The notes beneath the pieces were generated by a model. That model ran no database searches. It saw nothing but the letters and a program-made list of their open reading frames with translations, and was not told the origin of the DNA. 40,117 bases of DNA, from positions 1-40,117 of the forward strand of contig JANQEP010000008.1 in NCBI GenBank assembly GCA_028278305.1, in the 5' to 3' direction. This DNA comes from Candidatus Gastranaerophilales bacterium (GTDB taxonomy: Bacteria; Cyanobacteriota; Vampirovibrionia; Gastranaerophilales; UBA9971). Within the stretch, counting starts at the first letter, position 1; each line of letters starts with the position of its first letter. The position numbers and the translations under genes were made by a program. This document shows positions 33,542 to 40,117 of the stretch, one piece after another.

Positions 33542-33949
33542 ATGTTAATGCCAAAAAGAACAAAATATAGAAAACAACAACGAGGCAGGATGAAAGGCAC
33601 AGAAACCAGAGGTACTGTAGTCCAGTACGGGGATTACGGTCTTCAATCCTTAGAACCCTGCTGGGTAAACAGCAGGCAAATTGAAGCTGCCAGAAGGGCT
33701 ATGACCCGTAGCATCAAAAGGGGCGGTAAAGTCTGGATTAAAATTTTCCCGGATAAGATAATTACCGCAAAACCTGCTGAAACCAGGATGGGTAAAGGTA
33801 AAGGCAATCCTGAATACTGGGTAGCTGTGGTAAAACCGGGAAGAGTTATGTTTGAGCTCGCCGGAGTTGAGAGAGATGTTGCAGTAAGAGCACTTGAACT
33901 GGCTGCACAAAAGCTTCCCAACAAAGTCAAAATCATTGAAAGACAATAA
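33542..33949 (+). CDS. rplP: 50S ribosomal protein L16
   Basis: [39 protein letters not shown]. Confidence 0.99.
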
Positions 33950-33969
33950 TATAAAAATGGTGATAAAAA

Positions 33970-34212
33970 ATGAAAACCAGTGAAATCAGAGAACAAACGG
34001 TTGATGAGCTTAAAGATAAAGTTACTTCCTTAAGAAAGGAACTTTTTGACCTGAAAATCCAAAAAGCGACTTTCAAGCTGGAAAACGTGGCTGAAATCCG
34101 CAAAAAAAGAAAATTAATTGCAAAAATCAAAACCGTTATTAGTGAAAAAAACCATCCCGGGCACAATGAAGGGTCTTCCGGGGTTCATACAGATTCTTCA
34201 GCTTCAGAATAG
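33970..34212 (+). CDS. rpmC: 50S ribosomal protein L29 with short polar tail
   Basis: E.R..T..EL......L.KELF.L..Q.A...LEN...I...RK.IA.IKT; synteny. Confidence 0.93.
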
Positions 34213-36705: not shown

Positions 36706-37242
36706 ATGTCCAGGATAGGCGTAGCTCCTGTTGAAATACCGGATAAAGTAAATGTAGAAATCCAGGATAACCTGATAAAAGCTTCAGGACCCCTGGGAGA
36801 GCTGGAAATAAGACTTCAGCCCGTAATAAAAGTAGAAAAGGAAAATAACAGGCTCGTGGTTAAAAAAGTGAATGACGAGAGAAAAACAAGGGCTCTTCAC
36901 GGTTTAAGCAGGACTCTTGTTTATAATATAGTTAACGGGGTAAGCAAGGGGTTTGAAAAAAGGCTTGAAATCCAGGGAGTCGGCTATAAAGCGGCTCTTG
37001 AAGGCAAGAATTTAAACCTTTCCCTGGGTTATAGTCATCCTGTGAAAATTGAACCTCCGCAGGGGATTGAGCTTAAGGTTGAGGGCAACAATAAAATCAT
37101 AGTTTCCGGCGCTGATAAACAGCTTGTAGGTGATATTGCGGCTTTAATACGCGGTAAAAGACCTCCTGAAGTTTATAAAGGCAAAGGTATCAGGTATGAA
37201 GGCGAATATGTACGCAAAAAAGCAGGTAAAGCCGGTAAATAA
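36706..37242 (+). CDS. rplF: 50S ribosomal protein L6
   Basis: MSRIG..P, GVGY.A, LGYSHP, RPPE.YKGKGIRY. Confidence 0.99.
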   Translation: MSRIGVAPVEIPDKVNVEIQDNLIKASGPLGELEIRLQPVIKVEKENNRLVVKKVNDERKTRALHGLSRTLVYNIVNGVSKGFEKRLEIQGVGYKAALEGKNLNLSLGYSHPVKIEPPQGIELKVEGNNKIIVSGADKQLVGDIAALIRGKRPPEVYKGKGIRYEGEYVRKKAGKAGK

Positions 37243-37285
37243 TTCTTAATGGTAAAAACAGAAATAATAACCCAGGTGAGATAAA

Positions 37286-37654
37286 ATGATCAAGAAAAAA
37301 ATAAAAAAAATCGATACACAAAAAAGGCACAGAAAAATAAGGGTAAACCTTAGCGGGACGTCGGAAAGACCGAGGCTTGCGGTTTTCAGGAGCAACAAGC
37401 ACATTTATGCCCAGCTTATTGATGATACACAGGGTAAGACATTAGCTTCTGCCGGGTCAGTAGAGGGTTCTTTAAAAGAACAGCTGAGCCATGGCGGAAA
37501 TATTAAGGCTTCAAAGGAAATCGGCAAGTTAATTGCTGAGAGGGCAAAAGAAAAAGGCATTAAAAAAGTTGTGTTTGACAGGGGCGGAAACCTCTATCAT
37601 GGCAGGATAGCCGAGCTTGCGGACGCTGCCCGTGAGAATGGGCTGGAATTCTAG
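37286..37654 (+). CDS. rplR: 50S ribosomal protein L18
   Basis: [32 protein letters not shown]...LADAARE.GL.F. Confidence 0.99.
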
Positions 37655-37677
37655 GAGCCCGTTTTTGAAAAGATAAG

Positions 37678-37716
37678 CAAAAAGTAGGGTGCGCACCCTA
37701 CTTTTTGTTGTTTACT
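37678..37716. repeat. Perfect 30-bp GTAG palindrome (family B) plus junction motif copy 1; may also act as a terminator
   Basis: CAAAAAGTAGGGTGC|GCACCCTACTTTTTG (37678-37707) followed by TTGTTTACT. Confidence 0.85.
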
Positions 37717-37918
37717 CTCTTTCAAATTTTATTTTATAGTTTAAAGCCTTGACTATTATTTCTAATTCATTCAAATTTACAGTGCCTTTTTTTAATTTAG
37801 ACGATAAATTTTGTACACTGTATGGTTTATCTTTTGCTTTAGAAATCTTTTCCGCTAAAAATGTCAATGTTACAGCATTATCCAATGCTAATTTTCTTAT
37901 TTCATTACCTAAACTCAT
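37712..37918 (-). CDS. Small Cro/XRE-like HTH protein (paralogue 1)
   Basis: 68 aa, colinear with 38086-38292: T.T.LAEK.SK.....Y..Q..S.KL...T..L.E...I...L.Y.I.F. Confidence 0.8.
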   Translation of the reverse strand: MSLGNEIRKLALDNAVTLTFLAEKISKAKDKPYSVQNLSSKLKKGTVNLNELEIIVKALNYKIKFERE

Positions 37919-37928
37919 TATTTAAAAA

Positions 37929-38033
37929 TAAACTATATGTTAAAAAATTAAAATATAGTTTAGCTAAATCTTGACTATCTTAAACTAATAATTTAAAATT
38001 AAAGTATTAGTTTATAAATATTAACAAAAGGAG
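37929..38033 (+). promoter_or_regulatory. Consensus promoter with twin palindromic operators and RBS
   Basis: TTGACT(37971)-17 bp-TAAAAT(37994); two 10-14-10 palindromes at 37929-37962 and 37981-38014, both TAAACTA...TAGTTTA; AAAAGGAG RBS. Confidence 0.75.
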
Positions 38034-38039
38034 TTTAAA

Positions 38040-38099
38040 ATGAGTAAAGAGGGAGTTTTCAGATGCGCAACCCGCAGTTTGTCGTTTACTTTTTTATAA
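38040..38099 (+). pseudogene. 19-codon ORF MSKEGVFRCATRSLSFTFL, a probable stub of a lost divergent gene
   Basis: Strong promoter and RBS, but the frame runs at once into repeat-derived sequence and stops. Confidence 0.45.
38064..38090. repeat. Degenerate family B palindrome plus junction motif copy 2
   Basis: TGCGCAACCCGCAGTTTGTCGTTTACT. Confidence 0.7.
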
Positions 38100-38292
38100 A
38101 TTCAATATTATAATCTAATATTTCTGCTATTAGAAAAGCTTCCTTTAAGGTCAAAGTTTCTCTTCTCAATTTGTGAGAGATACTTTGAAAAGTATATTTT
38201 TCATTAGTTTTTTTTGACAACTTTTCTGCCAGCTTGGTTATAGTCATACCCTCCTGAGCCAGTAGTGATTTTATTTTGTTTCTAATATTCAT
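38086..38292 (-). CDS. Small Cro/XRE-like HTH protein (paralogue 2)
   Basis: 68 aa, aligns without gaps to 37712-37918. Confidence 0.8.
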   Translation of the reverse strand: MNIRNKIKSLLAQEGMTITKLAEKLSKKTNEKYTFQSISHKLRRETLTLKEAFLIAEILDYNIEFIKK

Positions 38293-38467
38293 AATTAACT
38301 CAAAAACAAGCTTAATAATTCTTTATTTTAAGAAAATTGAATTATCAGAGTAAAATACTTTATGTTATCATCCTTTAAGAAATTAAAACCTCCTATTGTG
38401 GAGGATTAAATTAAAATAAAATGCATATTGCACACCCAATTAATCAAAGAAAGGCAAAAAATTTTTT

Positions 38468-38803
38468 ATGGATAAAACGGAACAGCCAATGATAAACCCG
38501 GATGCAGCAATATTTCCAATAAGTGTAATTGCGGATATCCTCGAGGTTCACCAGAGGACGCTCAGGATTTATGATGATGAAAACATCCTGGTTCCAAGCA
38601 GGTCAAGCAGGAATAGACGGCTTTACTCCTTTAATGACCTGGAAAAAGGAAAGTTCATAAAGCATTTAACTCGAAACCTGGGGGTTAATCTTGCAGGAGT
38701 GAAAATAGCCCTTGTTCTGCTTAAAGAAGCGGGACTTTCTCCTGAGAGCTACACTGAAAAGGTAAATGACATAGTTGCACAATATAAAGTAGAAAATCTG
38801 TAG
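38468..38803 (+). CDS. MerR-family (HspR-like) transcriptional regulator
   Basis: FPIS..A.IL.VH.RTLR.YD...IL.P.RS..NRRLYS..DL.....I..L....GVNLAGVK. Confidence 0.9.
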   Translation: MDKTEQPMINPDAAIFPISVIADILEVHQRTLRIYDDENILVPSRSSRNRRLYSFNDLEKGKFIKHLTRNLGVNLAGVKIALVLLKEAGLSPESYTEKVNDIVAQYKVENL

Positions 38804-38843
38804 CAGTAGGTTGGTTTGAAAAATTCTATTTTTTAACCCAACA
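38801..38843 (+). repeat. Degenerate GTAG-type hairpin at the MerR stop codon
   Basis: TAGCAGTAGGTTGGTTTGAAAA...TTTTTAACCCAAC; shares the AGCAGTAG flank with family B copies. Confidence 0.45.
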
Positions 38844-38875
38844 GCTTTAAATACTGACTGGTAGTGGTATTTTTG

Positions 38876-38989
38876 TGTCATGACGCACTTGAGAAGCCTG
38901 CCCCGTGCTTGACACGGGGGCATCTATCCGCCAAACATATCAGGCAATAAGCCTAATTATACAGACCCCGCATCAAGTGCGGGGTGACA
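38876..38989. mobile_element. GC-rich nested-hairpin MITE-like element (family C, TGTCA...TGACA ends)
   Basis: Terminal inverted repeats TGTCATGACGCACTTGA / TCAAGTGCGGGGTGACA; internal hairpins CCCCGTG-CTTGA-CACGGGG and ACCCCGCA-TCAAG-TGCGGGGT. Confidence 0.7.
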
Positions 38990-38991
38990 AC

Positions 38992-39037
38992 AGCAGTAGA
39001 GGGTGCGCAATGCGCACCCTACTTTTTGTCGTTTACT
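38992..39037. repeat. Family B palindrome plus junction motif copy 3
   Basis: AGCAGTAGAGGGTGCGCAATGCGCACCCTACTTTTTGTCGTTTACT. Confidence 0.85.
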
Positions 39038-39329
39038 GAATTTCATTAAAATCCCCGTCAAAATTTATGCCTCTATCATAAATATAAGCATAAGCTGGAA
39101 TTTTTTTATTTGTAACTTCTTTTATATATTTTTCAAACCCGTATTTTTTCAACCAAACTTTTACAGAATTTGGTTTTCTTACAGTAAAAATATAAATATC
39201 ATAGTAAGTATTCAGTTCATCCAAAAACTCCAATGCACCTTCTTTTGCATTGGGCAAAATACCATTGTTCCAACCTGTATAATTATTCAGCACTCCATCA
39301 AAGTCTACTAATAATCTTCGTTTTTTCAT
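39033..39329 (-). CDS. Small HAD-superfamily (5'-nucleotidase-like) protein, possibly degenerate or truncated
   Basis: LLVDFDGVL (motif I), IFT.R (motif II), K.PA..YIYDR (motif IV normally DD); AGGAGG RBS. Confidence 0.7.
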   Translation of the reverse strand: MKKRRLLVDFDGVLNNYTGWNNGILPNAKEGALEFLDELNTYYDIYIFTVRKPNSVKVWLKKYGFEKYIKEVTNKKIPAYAYIYDRGINFDGDFNEIQ

Positions 39330-39479
39330 TAATCTACCTCCTTTAAAAACATTTTAGCAATACAATTCGTATCCGTCAAAAAAATAAATACACAAAATCC
39401 TTTATTTAAAGGAGTTTTACTCATATATAAATGAACGGTTCTGTTGATAAAATATAAGCTATAAACCAAAATCTTTATT

Positions 39480-39722
39480 ATGAGCAGAAGAAATCACAAA
39501 CGTAATAAAGTTTTATGCAGACATGTTGGCAAGAAGATTAAAGAATTAAGAACTAAGGCGAATATATCCCAAGAAATTCTTGCTTTTGAAGCAAAAATAT
39601 CAAGTGCATACCTTGGTAATATAGAAAGAGCTGAAAGCGATATGACCCTTTCAACAGCTTTAAATGTCTTTAAAGCACTAAATGTTAAAATGTCTGAGTT
39701 TTTTAAATTAATTGAAAGATAG
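39480..39722 (+). CDS. XRE-family HTH regulator
   Basis: G..IKELR....ISQE.LA..A.IS..YL..IER.E....L.T......AL.V...EFF. Confidence 0.9.
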   Translation: MSRRNHKRNKVLCRHVGKKIKELRTKANISQEILAFEAKISSAYLGNIERAESDMTLSTALNVFKALNVKMSEFFKLIER

Positions 39723-39726
39723 CTTA

Positions 39727-39745
39727 CTACTTTTTGTCGTTTACT
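39727..39745. repeat. Junction motif copy 4 (no palindrome)
   Basis: CTACTTTTTGTCGTTTACT, identical to 39019-39037. Confidence 0.85.
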
Positions 39746-39995
39746 AATATATCAAGATTAACAAGTATTTGACCTGGTTTTTCCAAATTTGATGCTAACC
39801 ATGCAATACAACCTACTGCTAAGCAGTTTGCTTCTGGCATACTTGATGGTTCCAGAGCAGGTTTAAATTCTGTAAAAAGTGAGGCTAAACATTTTACTGG
39901 CGATGTTTTAAGTAGAATAAGTAATATTTTTAAGTAGATATTAAAAGTAGCTGAAAAAAGTATTACGGGCCTGGTGCAGGATAACACCCGCCTCC

Positions 39996-40109
39996 CTACA
40001 TGCTTTTTTCTTCTTTTGAAGAAACTATTACATCGTATATAACAATAAAACCAAGTGCTAATATAGCAAAAGCAGTAAATGTTAAAGCAAAGTATTCAAA
40101 AGGTGTCAT
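39996..40109 (-). CDS. Small single-pass membrane peptide (37 aa) or 3' end of a gene starting beyond the window
   Basis: Hand-translated MTPFEYFALTFTAFAILALGFIVIYDVIVSSKEEKSM*; below the ORF-track cut-off; the frame stays open to the window edge. Confidence 0.5.
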   Translation of the reverse strand: MTPFEYFALTFTAFAILALGFIVIYDVIVSSKEEKSM

Positions 40110-40117
40110 TATTAATC

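Follow-up and report, generated by a model that had tools for sequence, protein, structure and literature searches.

A cassette-like array of small genes bounded by REP-like hairpin-and-tail sites behind rplR in one genus of Gastranaerophilales

Accessory DNA that lacks a recombinase of its own is known to gather between repeated sites: integrase-less segments stand between att repeats at the 3′ end of conserved genes, as elements mobilised in cis by integrative and conjugative elements (ICEs), and Xer-dependent dif modules are carried by plasmids. The locus considered here belongs to Candidatus Gastranaerophilales and consists of small genes stacked behind the ribosomal protein gene rplR and bounded by a hairpin element whose 3′ tail is the repeated motif TTTGTYGTTTACT. 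It occupies the end of the window, by which is meant the whole stretch of DNA analysed, 40,117 nucleotides, this being the entire contig C2 of a genome called here G000 (160 contigs, 89.8% complete). A further system, and the one that the element recalls in its form, is that of the repetitive extragenic palindromes (REPs). In the excerpts of the literature drawn on here, the REP-associated tyrosine transposase (RAYT) of E. coli, TnpAREP, binds the REP hairpin with its 5′ GTAG, both of which it needs, cuts single-stranded DNA between C and T, on either side of the hairpin and also at a distance, and transfers strands, and the authors propose the excision of a single-strand circle between two cuts (PMC3479197; PMC3333891). 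From the same kind of excerpt it appears that GTAG REP ends often supply a TAG stop to neighbouring open reading frames (ORFs) (PMC3733652), and that REPs usually exceed 100 per genome (PMC2817692). Among titles and the opening parts of abstracts, there was no report of REP-bounded gene cassettes or of integrons in Melainabacteria.

The locus holds a genuine array, cassette-like and specific to one genus, whose boundaries are REP-like hairpins with their tails and which is not an integron. The first-pass annotation of this DNA had described four copies of the tail in one orientation, an abrupt end of similarity after TTTACT, a TAA shared with the stops of three genes, and a palindrome, intact or degenerate, ahead of three copies; this description is correct in each respect and the motif lies far beyond chance. 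TTTGTYGTTTACT is present in four exact copies, at 37704-37716, 38078-38090, 39025-39037 and 39733-39745, all on the plus strand and spanning 2.1 kb, and the remaining matches in the window, also four, each have two mismatches and lie on the minus strand in unrelated places. In its complement, AGTAAAC, lies a TAA with which three minus-strand ORFs end: 37712-37918, 38086-38292 and 39033-39329 (68, 68 and 98 aa). The edge is sharp: when 15 sites from two species are aligned (a 16th was omitted, its right flank being common with site 3), 14-15 of the 15 agree at positions -12 to 0, except at the Y position (10/15), and agreement drops at once to 5-11 of 15 over positions +1 to +25. Each interval between sites holds, as had been noted, a minus-strand small gene and a divergent gene or stub (a stub, a MerR-type gene and an XRE-type gene in intervals 1, 2 and 3). 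Across the genome, exact TTTGTYGTTTACT occurs six times forward and once in reverse, against one and one for a reversed-pattern control, and the palindrome accompanies only one (C12:893) of the three exact matches beyond the window. These matches, like the sites of a sequence model made from 13 sites (R1), are clustered and co-oriented and not scattered.

In full, the element consists of GTAGGGTGCGCA, 0-2 nt, TGCGCACCCTAC, two variable bases and TTTGTYGTTTACT. Sites 1 and 3, C12 and most sites of the sister species, G001, have GTAG at the 5′ foot of the GC-rich palindrome. The four sites of the window are as follows:

37684 to 37716, plus strand: site 1, a perfect GTAG palindrome (37684-37701) and the tail TTTTTGTTGTTTACT (37702-37716)
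38063 to 38090, plus strand: site 2, a degenerate right arm (ATGCGCAACCCGC), AG and the exact tail, the palindrome being a vestige
38996 to 39037, plus strand: site 3, a long-form GTAG palindrome with one extra A (38996-39022) and the tail (39023-39037)
39727 to 39745, plus strand: site 4, CTAC, TT and the exact tail, with no hairpin

At site 1 an A-run and a T-run border the palindrome, both strands score as a terminator, and the DNA fold has -16.2 kcal/mol (z -5.9). Site 3 also folds well and is terminator-like on the plus strand. Site 2 has no stable hairpin (z -0.13) and is matched by R1 with an E value of 5e-8, and the 22 bases at 39724-39745, at site 4, are 100% identical to locus L006 of G001 (8386-8365), where they recur as a tandem tail. 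A GC-rich stem-loop followed by a T-run, the pattern of an intrinsic terminator, is present at sites 1 and 3 and absent from sites 2 and 4; from its sequence, the intact element looks like such a terminator for transcription arriving from the left. An Rfam scan of 37000-40117, with E values up to 10, returned four chance-level matches, none of them near the gathering score.

Applied to 31 genomes of the order, model R1 finds seven distinct sites in G000 (four of them in the array), 13 in G001 and one in G002, a further relative in the same genus, numbers that may fall short since all three are fragmented metagenome-assembled genomes (MAGs) in which repeats are under-assembled. The other 28 genomes yield only weak matches (E 0.007-0.05), on the hairpin part of the model, and these scans show the element to be confined to one genus of Gastranaerophilales. 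Searches with the exact pattern, on one genome per species, retrieved real sites in G001 only. A looser pattern at the same scope gave 24 loci, of which only those of G001 are real, L070 being a terminator with a similar T-run, and the 27 loci obtained from viral contigs with CTACNNTTTGTYGTTTACT all lie in unrelated sequence, none with a hairpin, and are attributed to chance. Metagenome contigs searched with CCCTACNNTTTGTYGTTTACT gave a single match, L029, possibly a chance event on a REP family, which was not used. In this high-GC contig (1542-1620), GTAGGGTGCGC and, further on, CCCTAC are followed by GGTTTGTTGTTTACT, and the stop of a dioxygenase-like gene lies in AGTAAAC; if it is not such a chance event, L029 is a distant relative of the site.

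After rplR a same-strand array is formed by about half of the sites in G000 and likewise in G001, where it comprises six sites on one strand within 4.2 kb directly behind the gene. The comparison of this locus among relatives, which the first-pass annotation had proposed, bears out the array, as G001 has its own series of the same sites there with different genes between them: the first site is common, an orthologous copy of site 1 standing behind rplR in G001 also, little else is, and the genes between sites mostly differ. In G002, contig C224 (L022/L087) carries after rplR another stem with the same T-run and GTTTAC, which holds the TAA of a convergent flavoprotein-like gene. Since the stem differs there and the T-run and GTTTAC do not, the tail may be native to the rplR locus and predate the palindrome. 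Synteny did not lead to the far end of the G000 array, because the gene convergent to rplR in G002 is on contig C26 of G000, and FeoB, a neighbour of the G001 array, is on its contig C73.

The strongest case of a shared unit is a segment that will be called module X:

39011 to 39726, no strand assigned: module X, 99.3% identical to contig C163 of G001 over 716 bases

Between the two genomes the long alignments (11, each of at least 900 bases) show 73.2-89.7% identity. Module X stands at a different locus in each species and has a site on its left side in both. Because the left arm of the hairpin and the two bases after CTAC differ between the species, the point of exchange would lie to their right; and C163 does belong to G001, as its next gene is only 73% identical to the G000 orthologue. 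The sequences suggest that at least one module passed recently between the species of G000 and G001, and also that modules are exchanged between species at the tail.

Four public runs (X1-X4), all from one study, were compared as assembled contigs; both species are present in runs of that study, and the arrays are known from two species that share a habitat. The G000 allele of module X is found in X1 and X2 with no differences, at a depth of 24-29 (rplR 16-28), and the G001 allele in X4 with five differences from it, at a depth of 80 (rplR 83). Independent contigs of X1 and X2 span all four junctions with 0-8 differences and at about the depth of rplR, although these runs may include the source sample of the window, so that they corroborate the assembly and are no independent replication. 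The site 4 junction is covered by run contigs up to 39773, 28 bases beyond the site. Further on, the bin 39838-39931 has zero contig depth in X1-X3, its flanks being found only in contigs about 30-fold deeper; such zero depth, which module X also shows in X3, is a hole in the contig cover and no evidence of absence. The stretches 39744-39817 and 39995-40117 occur as well in X1-X3 contigs at about 30-fold genome depth, with 1-3 differences, and these contigs could be a plasmid, a phage or a much more abundant relative sharing array genes. A joint of 37736 to 38153 seen at about 1000-fold depth, with a side of only 21 bases, was rejected as coming from some other abundant sequence.

As for where the breaks fall, site 4 joins the middle of a gene for a 76-aa protein: the window reads ...GTTTACT followed by AATATATC, and the intact gene in G001 reads ...ATTGCT followed by AATATATC, CT is common to both partners, and the break falls at or inside it. 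A unit made of the tail only follows a complete tail in G001 (...GTCATTTACT and then ACTTTTTGTCGTTTACT) and follows ...GCTTACT at site 4 of the window, and tail-to-tail duplications (...TTTACT and then ACTTTTTGTCGTTTACT) are found in both species. On contig C259 of G001, three units in succession all end in the opening part of one gene, namely its ribosome-binding site and its first 13 codons; a site cuts this part off in two of the units, and in the third it continues into the whole gene. Three pairs of sites have differing right flanks, and in them the variant of the hairpin accompanies the left flank. The likeness of the 68-aa gene to two homologues elsewhere ends at the same place, which coincides with the end of the coding sequence and proves little. 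Read from the sequences, the alignments show junctions to non-site DNA with a known unrearranged partner falling at the terminal CT; the two such junctions, together with the tail duplications, would be compatible with cleavage and joining at CT, the exact bond not being placeable.

The genes and other features around the sites are these:

37286 to 37654, plus strand: rplR, ORF of 122 aa, the final gene of the ribosomal operon segment
37712 to 37918, minus strand: small helix-turn-helix (HTH) gene, 68 aa, its stop being the TAA of site 1 (HTH_26 E 0.03, below the cut-off)
38041 to 38100, plus strand: partner-gene stub, whose likeness to G001 stops just past the ATG, site 2 following
38086 to 38292, minus strand: second small HTH gene, 68 aa, of the same family, its stop being the TAA of site 2
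38468 to 38803, plus strand: MerR-type regulator, 111 aa, divergent from the HTH gene (MerR_1 E 1.8e-15)
38837 to 38995, no strand assigned: non-coding element of about 160 bases with two opposed REP-like hairpins (CCCCGYRCTTGAYRCGGGG), which moves with site 3
39033 to 39329, minus strand: 98-aa ORF with a DxDG start, weakly NIF/HAD-like (NIF E 0.0017, below the cut-off), its stop being the TAA of site 3, likewise within module X
39480 to 39722, plus strand: XRE-type HTH gene, 80 aa, divergent from the 98-aa ORF and part of module X (HTH_3 E 6e-9)
39746 to 39813, minus strand: membrane-protein gene fragment, an internal piece of the 76-aa small membrane protein that is whole in G001
39847 to 40117, no strand assigned: end segment, 99.6% identical to G001, in an order permuted with respect to G001, reaching the contig end

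The rplR gene is 98% identical to the G001 copy, and all 13 genomes searched have it. The next ORF is not rpsE in any of the 12 relatives, and a hairpin with a T-run is visible by eye in most of them; since rpsE is not next to rplR in the relatives and stands elsewhere, the array interrupts no operon and has its place behind the terminator of this one. The other place of rpsE was located in all 12 (in G013, on the same contig about 555 kb away), rpsE was not found in the G000 assembly, and the ribosomal protein cluster is split after rplR in every genome of the order that was searched (loci L017-L028).

The 68-aa HTH protein encoded at 37712-37918 belongs to a family of about 70 aa seen in Melainabacteria clusters, for which an atlas look-up gave no function. 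Its G001 homologue (L079) is 90% identical and has no site; there, positions 1501-1834 match 38043-37712 of the window, and the partner gene is whole, with 51 codons as read from the sequence. This type of HTH gene, divergent from a small ORF of about 50-70 aa, constitutes a multi-copy module, found also in G000 at C92:2497-3058, C85:15252-15494 and 33881-34096, and in L007 and L079, with a common ribosome-binding region (TTAACAAAAGGAG) and in most copies no site; it may be a toxin-antitoxin-like or regulator pair. The MerR-type gene is equally of a multi-copy family in the genus, with related stretches on eight more G001 contigs and three of G002 and a conserved stretch ...HQRTLRIYD...RLYSFNDI...; its pairing with a small XRE/HTH gene (window 38299-38803; L008, L080-L085), the MerR-type protein having about 110 aa, is itself multi-copy, several copies being at contig ends. 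The window from 38837 to 39039 is 96% identical to contig C129 of G001 (L006 10546-10347), with different neighbours on both sides. The CCCCGYRCTTGAYRCGGGG hairpin has nine exact copies in G000, and in the runs 38837-38995 has a summed contig depth that exceeds the genome's by a factor of tens to hundreds. Other short repeat families, of some 70-225 bases, lie in the same G001 locus (L006 2495-2719, 4500-4613, 6781-6851, 9185-9258) and are common to many G000 contigs, often at their ends, C12 starting with one, and the assemblies are broken by them. A word-indexed search with the 98-aa ORF found nothing related beyond its own two-member cluster, and an atlas look-up of a 214-aa array protein gave no function. 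Promoter-like hexamers lie between each minus-strand gene and its divergent partner or stub. A Pfam search on 17 array proteins from both species detected no recombinase, HUH-type nuclease or transposase, and one SNase-like gene.

How these units came together could be explained, and this is the reading that we favour, although at somewhat less than an even chance, by single-strand exchange at CT carried out by an HUH-type, RAYT-like Y1 enzyme that stacks and moves the modules. The element, a genus-specific palindrome with the repeated motif as its 3′ tail, would mark the right end of modules, typically a small HTH gene with a divergent partner and promoter-like sequences between the two, and such modules would have been stacked successively behind the rplR terminator in two sister species. 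Cleavage of single-stranded DNA and strand transfer at CT beside the hairpin would drive both stacking and exchange, the enzyme acting in trans and being missing from the incomplete assemblies; the DNA between two co-oriented sites could leave as a circle with one site, and either a further site or a stray CT could serve this circle for its re-entry. In its form and its CT breakpoints the element fits the TnpAREP picture, and what the first-pass annotation had said of RAYTs (GTAG, cleavage at CT) agrees with the excerpts of PMC3479197 and PMC3333891. The broader proposition, that of a platform for small-module cassettes in these non-photosynthetic relatives of cyanobacteria, worked at CT by an HUH or an unrecognised enzyme, seems to us doubtful.

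Several observations weigh against an HUH-type exchange. The first-pass annotation had proposed a search for RAYT/Y1 transposases flanked by the palindrome, and none came to light: no match to PF01797 (RAYT/Y1) is present in G000, at its 89.8% completeness, or in G002, and the sole Y1 gene of G001 is a truncated, IS200-type one beside an unrelated hairpin. No Y2 enzyme was found, in a search without a positive control, and no MobA-type relaxase. The element has 7-13 copies and not the more than 100 that are typical of REPs, its GTAG is base-paired where that of REPs is unpaired, and sites 2 and 4 are without the hairpin that an HUH enzyme would need. Co-orientation could instead reflect a terminator role behind a strongly expressed operon. 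The unrearranged partner is known for no more than two junctions, the break at the stop codon of the 68-aa gene, a third one, proving little, and some module edges cut genes and look more like illegitimate or one-sided events than a clean exchange of cassettes. Among the run data, which were compared as assembled contigs, neither circular nor empty-site forms appeared. The idea of a gene-capture array outside the integrons, which had been put forward at the outset, is therefore upheld only in part: the clustering, the G001 array, the 99.3% identical module and the breaks at CT speak for it, and the missing RAYT, the low copy number and the gene-cutting edges speak against it. On the Y1 gene of G001 it may be added that it lies on the 2.2-kb contig C215 (L078), by a fragment of another transposase, with the GGGACTTCCAGTCCC hairpin in its flanks. 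No IS91-type enzyme was found either.

An alternative that dispenses with any dedicated enzyme, rather unlikely in our estimate and second in rank, is that the sites are paralogous copies of a terminator, the one after rplR perhaps being the original, which were reshuffled by ordinary recombination at repeats of 30-45 bases, their orientation being set by the direction of the transcription that they stop. Homologous, short-homology or illegitimate recombination between co-resident species, for example after DNA uptake, would suffice, and would accord with the terminator scores of sites 1 and 3, with the hairpin and T-run seen by eye behind rplR in most relatives, with the G002 locus, whose T-run and GTTTAC with the TAA of a convergent gene hint at a native tail, with the want of a recombinase near any site, with the truncated genes at module edges and with the several other short repeat families of these genomes. 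However, a terminator role leaves unexplained the 13 conserved bases past the T-run and an edge sharp to one base, as well as the hairpin-less copies of the tail (site 4 and the tandem tail of G001); the junctions to non-homologous DNA have only CT or TTRCT in common; and 30-45 bases are at the lower limit for RecA-dependent exchange. An improbable explanation, in our view, is accretion at an attB composed of the rplR terminator and tail, where a tyrosine or serine integrase acting in trans would have left decayed, integrase-less segments between att repeats. In two species the array does start precisely where a conserved operon has its 3′ end, every site is a direct repeat, candidate enzymes exist elsewhere (8-9 tyrosine recombinase matches in each of G000 and G001 and four serine recombinase matches in G000), and the short array parts in contigs of about 30-fold depth could be plasmid or phage. 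Yet the intervals measure only 0.3-1.7 kb and none has an integrase remnant, sites also stand singly at at least six other loci, none of the 12 recombinase loci of G000 has a site or site-like sequence within 4 kb, and the junction in the 76-aa gene shares with the site only CT or TTRCT, too little for tyrosine recombinases, which need an identical overlap of 6-8 bases. Three loose matches to the tail near G000 recombinase loci are inside genes or without a hairpin.

It would be harder still to see in the array the remnant of an integron, that is, a cluster of attC sites lacking an integron integrase (CALIN), for which we would allow very little probability. Direct hairpin repeats bounding gene units of 0.4-1 kb, stops that overlap the site and the agreement of GTTTACT with GTTRRRY at five of seven positions give it some semblance (the consensus RYYYAAC/GTTRRRY being taken as the first-pass annotation quoted it), but it is already contradicted on three defining features, and the earlier judgement that this is no integron is sustained. 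Against a cut-off of 265 bits, the best matches to the IntI model (TIGR02249) score 85.5 (G000), 85.2 (G001) and 83.3 (G002), and they are Xer-like genes of 305-319 aa lying elsewhere, a result which is not decisive alone, as a CALIN needs no IntI nearby. Left of the hairpin no inverse core is conserved, and hence there is no R″/R′ pair as in attC; the partner of site 4 shares only CT with it (TTGCT against TTACT) and not TTTACT, which does not agree with a crossover between G and TT; and the units are divergent pairs with promoter-like sequences, in which the genes abutting the site face the wrong side for a GTT end. Just as remote is an artefact of assembly or binning, a chimera of two co-occurring species. 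Both species are indeed present in the runs of one study, the contig ends inside the array, and its last 340 or so bases have no G000-type contigs in X1-X3 and are permuted with respect to G001, so that the window beyond about 39773 may be chimeric. Against this, the independent contigs of X1 and X2 span rplR to site 1, site 2, and site 3 through module X to site 4 and 28 bases more, at rplR-like depth; of the listed G001-type differences at the rplR end (37600-37621) none was seen in X1 or X2; the two alleles of module X, with their five differences, are in different runs; and the gene after X on the G001 contig has only 73% identity to its G000 orthologue.

REP-like hairpins are usually seen as terminators, stabilisers of mRNA or selfish miniatures, and here one seems to form the boundary at which small genes are stacked and exchanged. 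If an enzyme stood behind this exchange, ordered arrays of mobile modules could be reached by a second route, next to that of integrons, and RAYT-type chemistry would gain a role in the movement of genes; if the cassettes were indeed the work of an HUH enzyme, an integron-like outcome would have been attained through a chemistry of the transposase type. In any case, an uncultured lineage here shows a variable hotspot beside a universal marker operon, and repeats of this sort break MAG assemblies exactly where the interest lies.

When the array is set against the known systems, integrons and CALINs resemble it in that direct hairpin repeats bound short gene units at one locus, in that the content differs between close relatives and the same unit appears in different arrays, and in that stop codons overlap the site; it departs from them in having no IntI and no inverse R″/R′ cores, in breaking at CT, in module edges that run through genes, in units that are divergent pairs with promoter-like sequences, and in a site conserved in sequence and not in structure only. 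With cis-mobilisable elements and dif arrays it has in common the accretion at the end of a conserved gene and the direct repeats that bound recombinase-less accessory segments, although its units are much smaller, its site is a hairpin with a tail in place of a two-arm core, and no cognate integrase was found. The right ends of IS200/IS605 insertion sequences, as described in the excerpts available, likewise have a subterminal hairpin, 10-20 bases and a fixed point of cleavage, and their strand-specific single-strand chemistry would explain both the one sharp end and the co-orientation; here, in contrast, there is no matching left hairpin past the junction, the right flanks are unrelated among 15 sites, the units contain no tnpA or tnpB, and the only Y1 gene of the genus is broken and has another hairpin. 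From the GTAG REPs, their bacterial interspersed mosaic elements (BIMEs) and their RAYTs, the array differs in its 7-13 copies instead of hundreds, in a GTAG paired with CTAC, in a conserved, non-palindromic tail of 15 nt, in copies that are co-oriented and separated by genes where those of BIMEs alternate, and in that no RAYT gene was found. It agrees with them, for all that, in the GTAG at the foot of a GC-rich palindrome, in a position mostly intergenic and downstream of genes, in an element end that gives the adjoining ORF its stop codon (TAG in REPs, according to the excerpt of PMC3733652), and in breaks that fall at CT, the dinucleotide that TnpAREP of E. coli is reported to cut.

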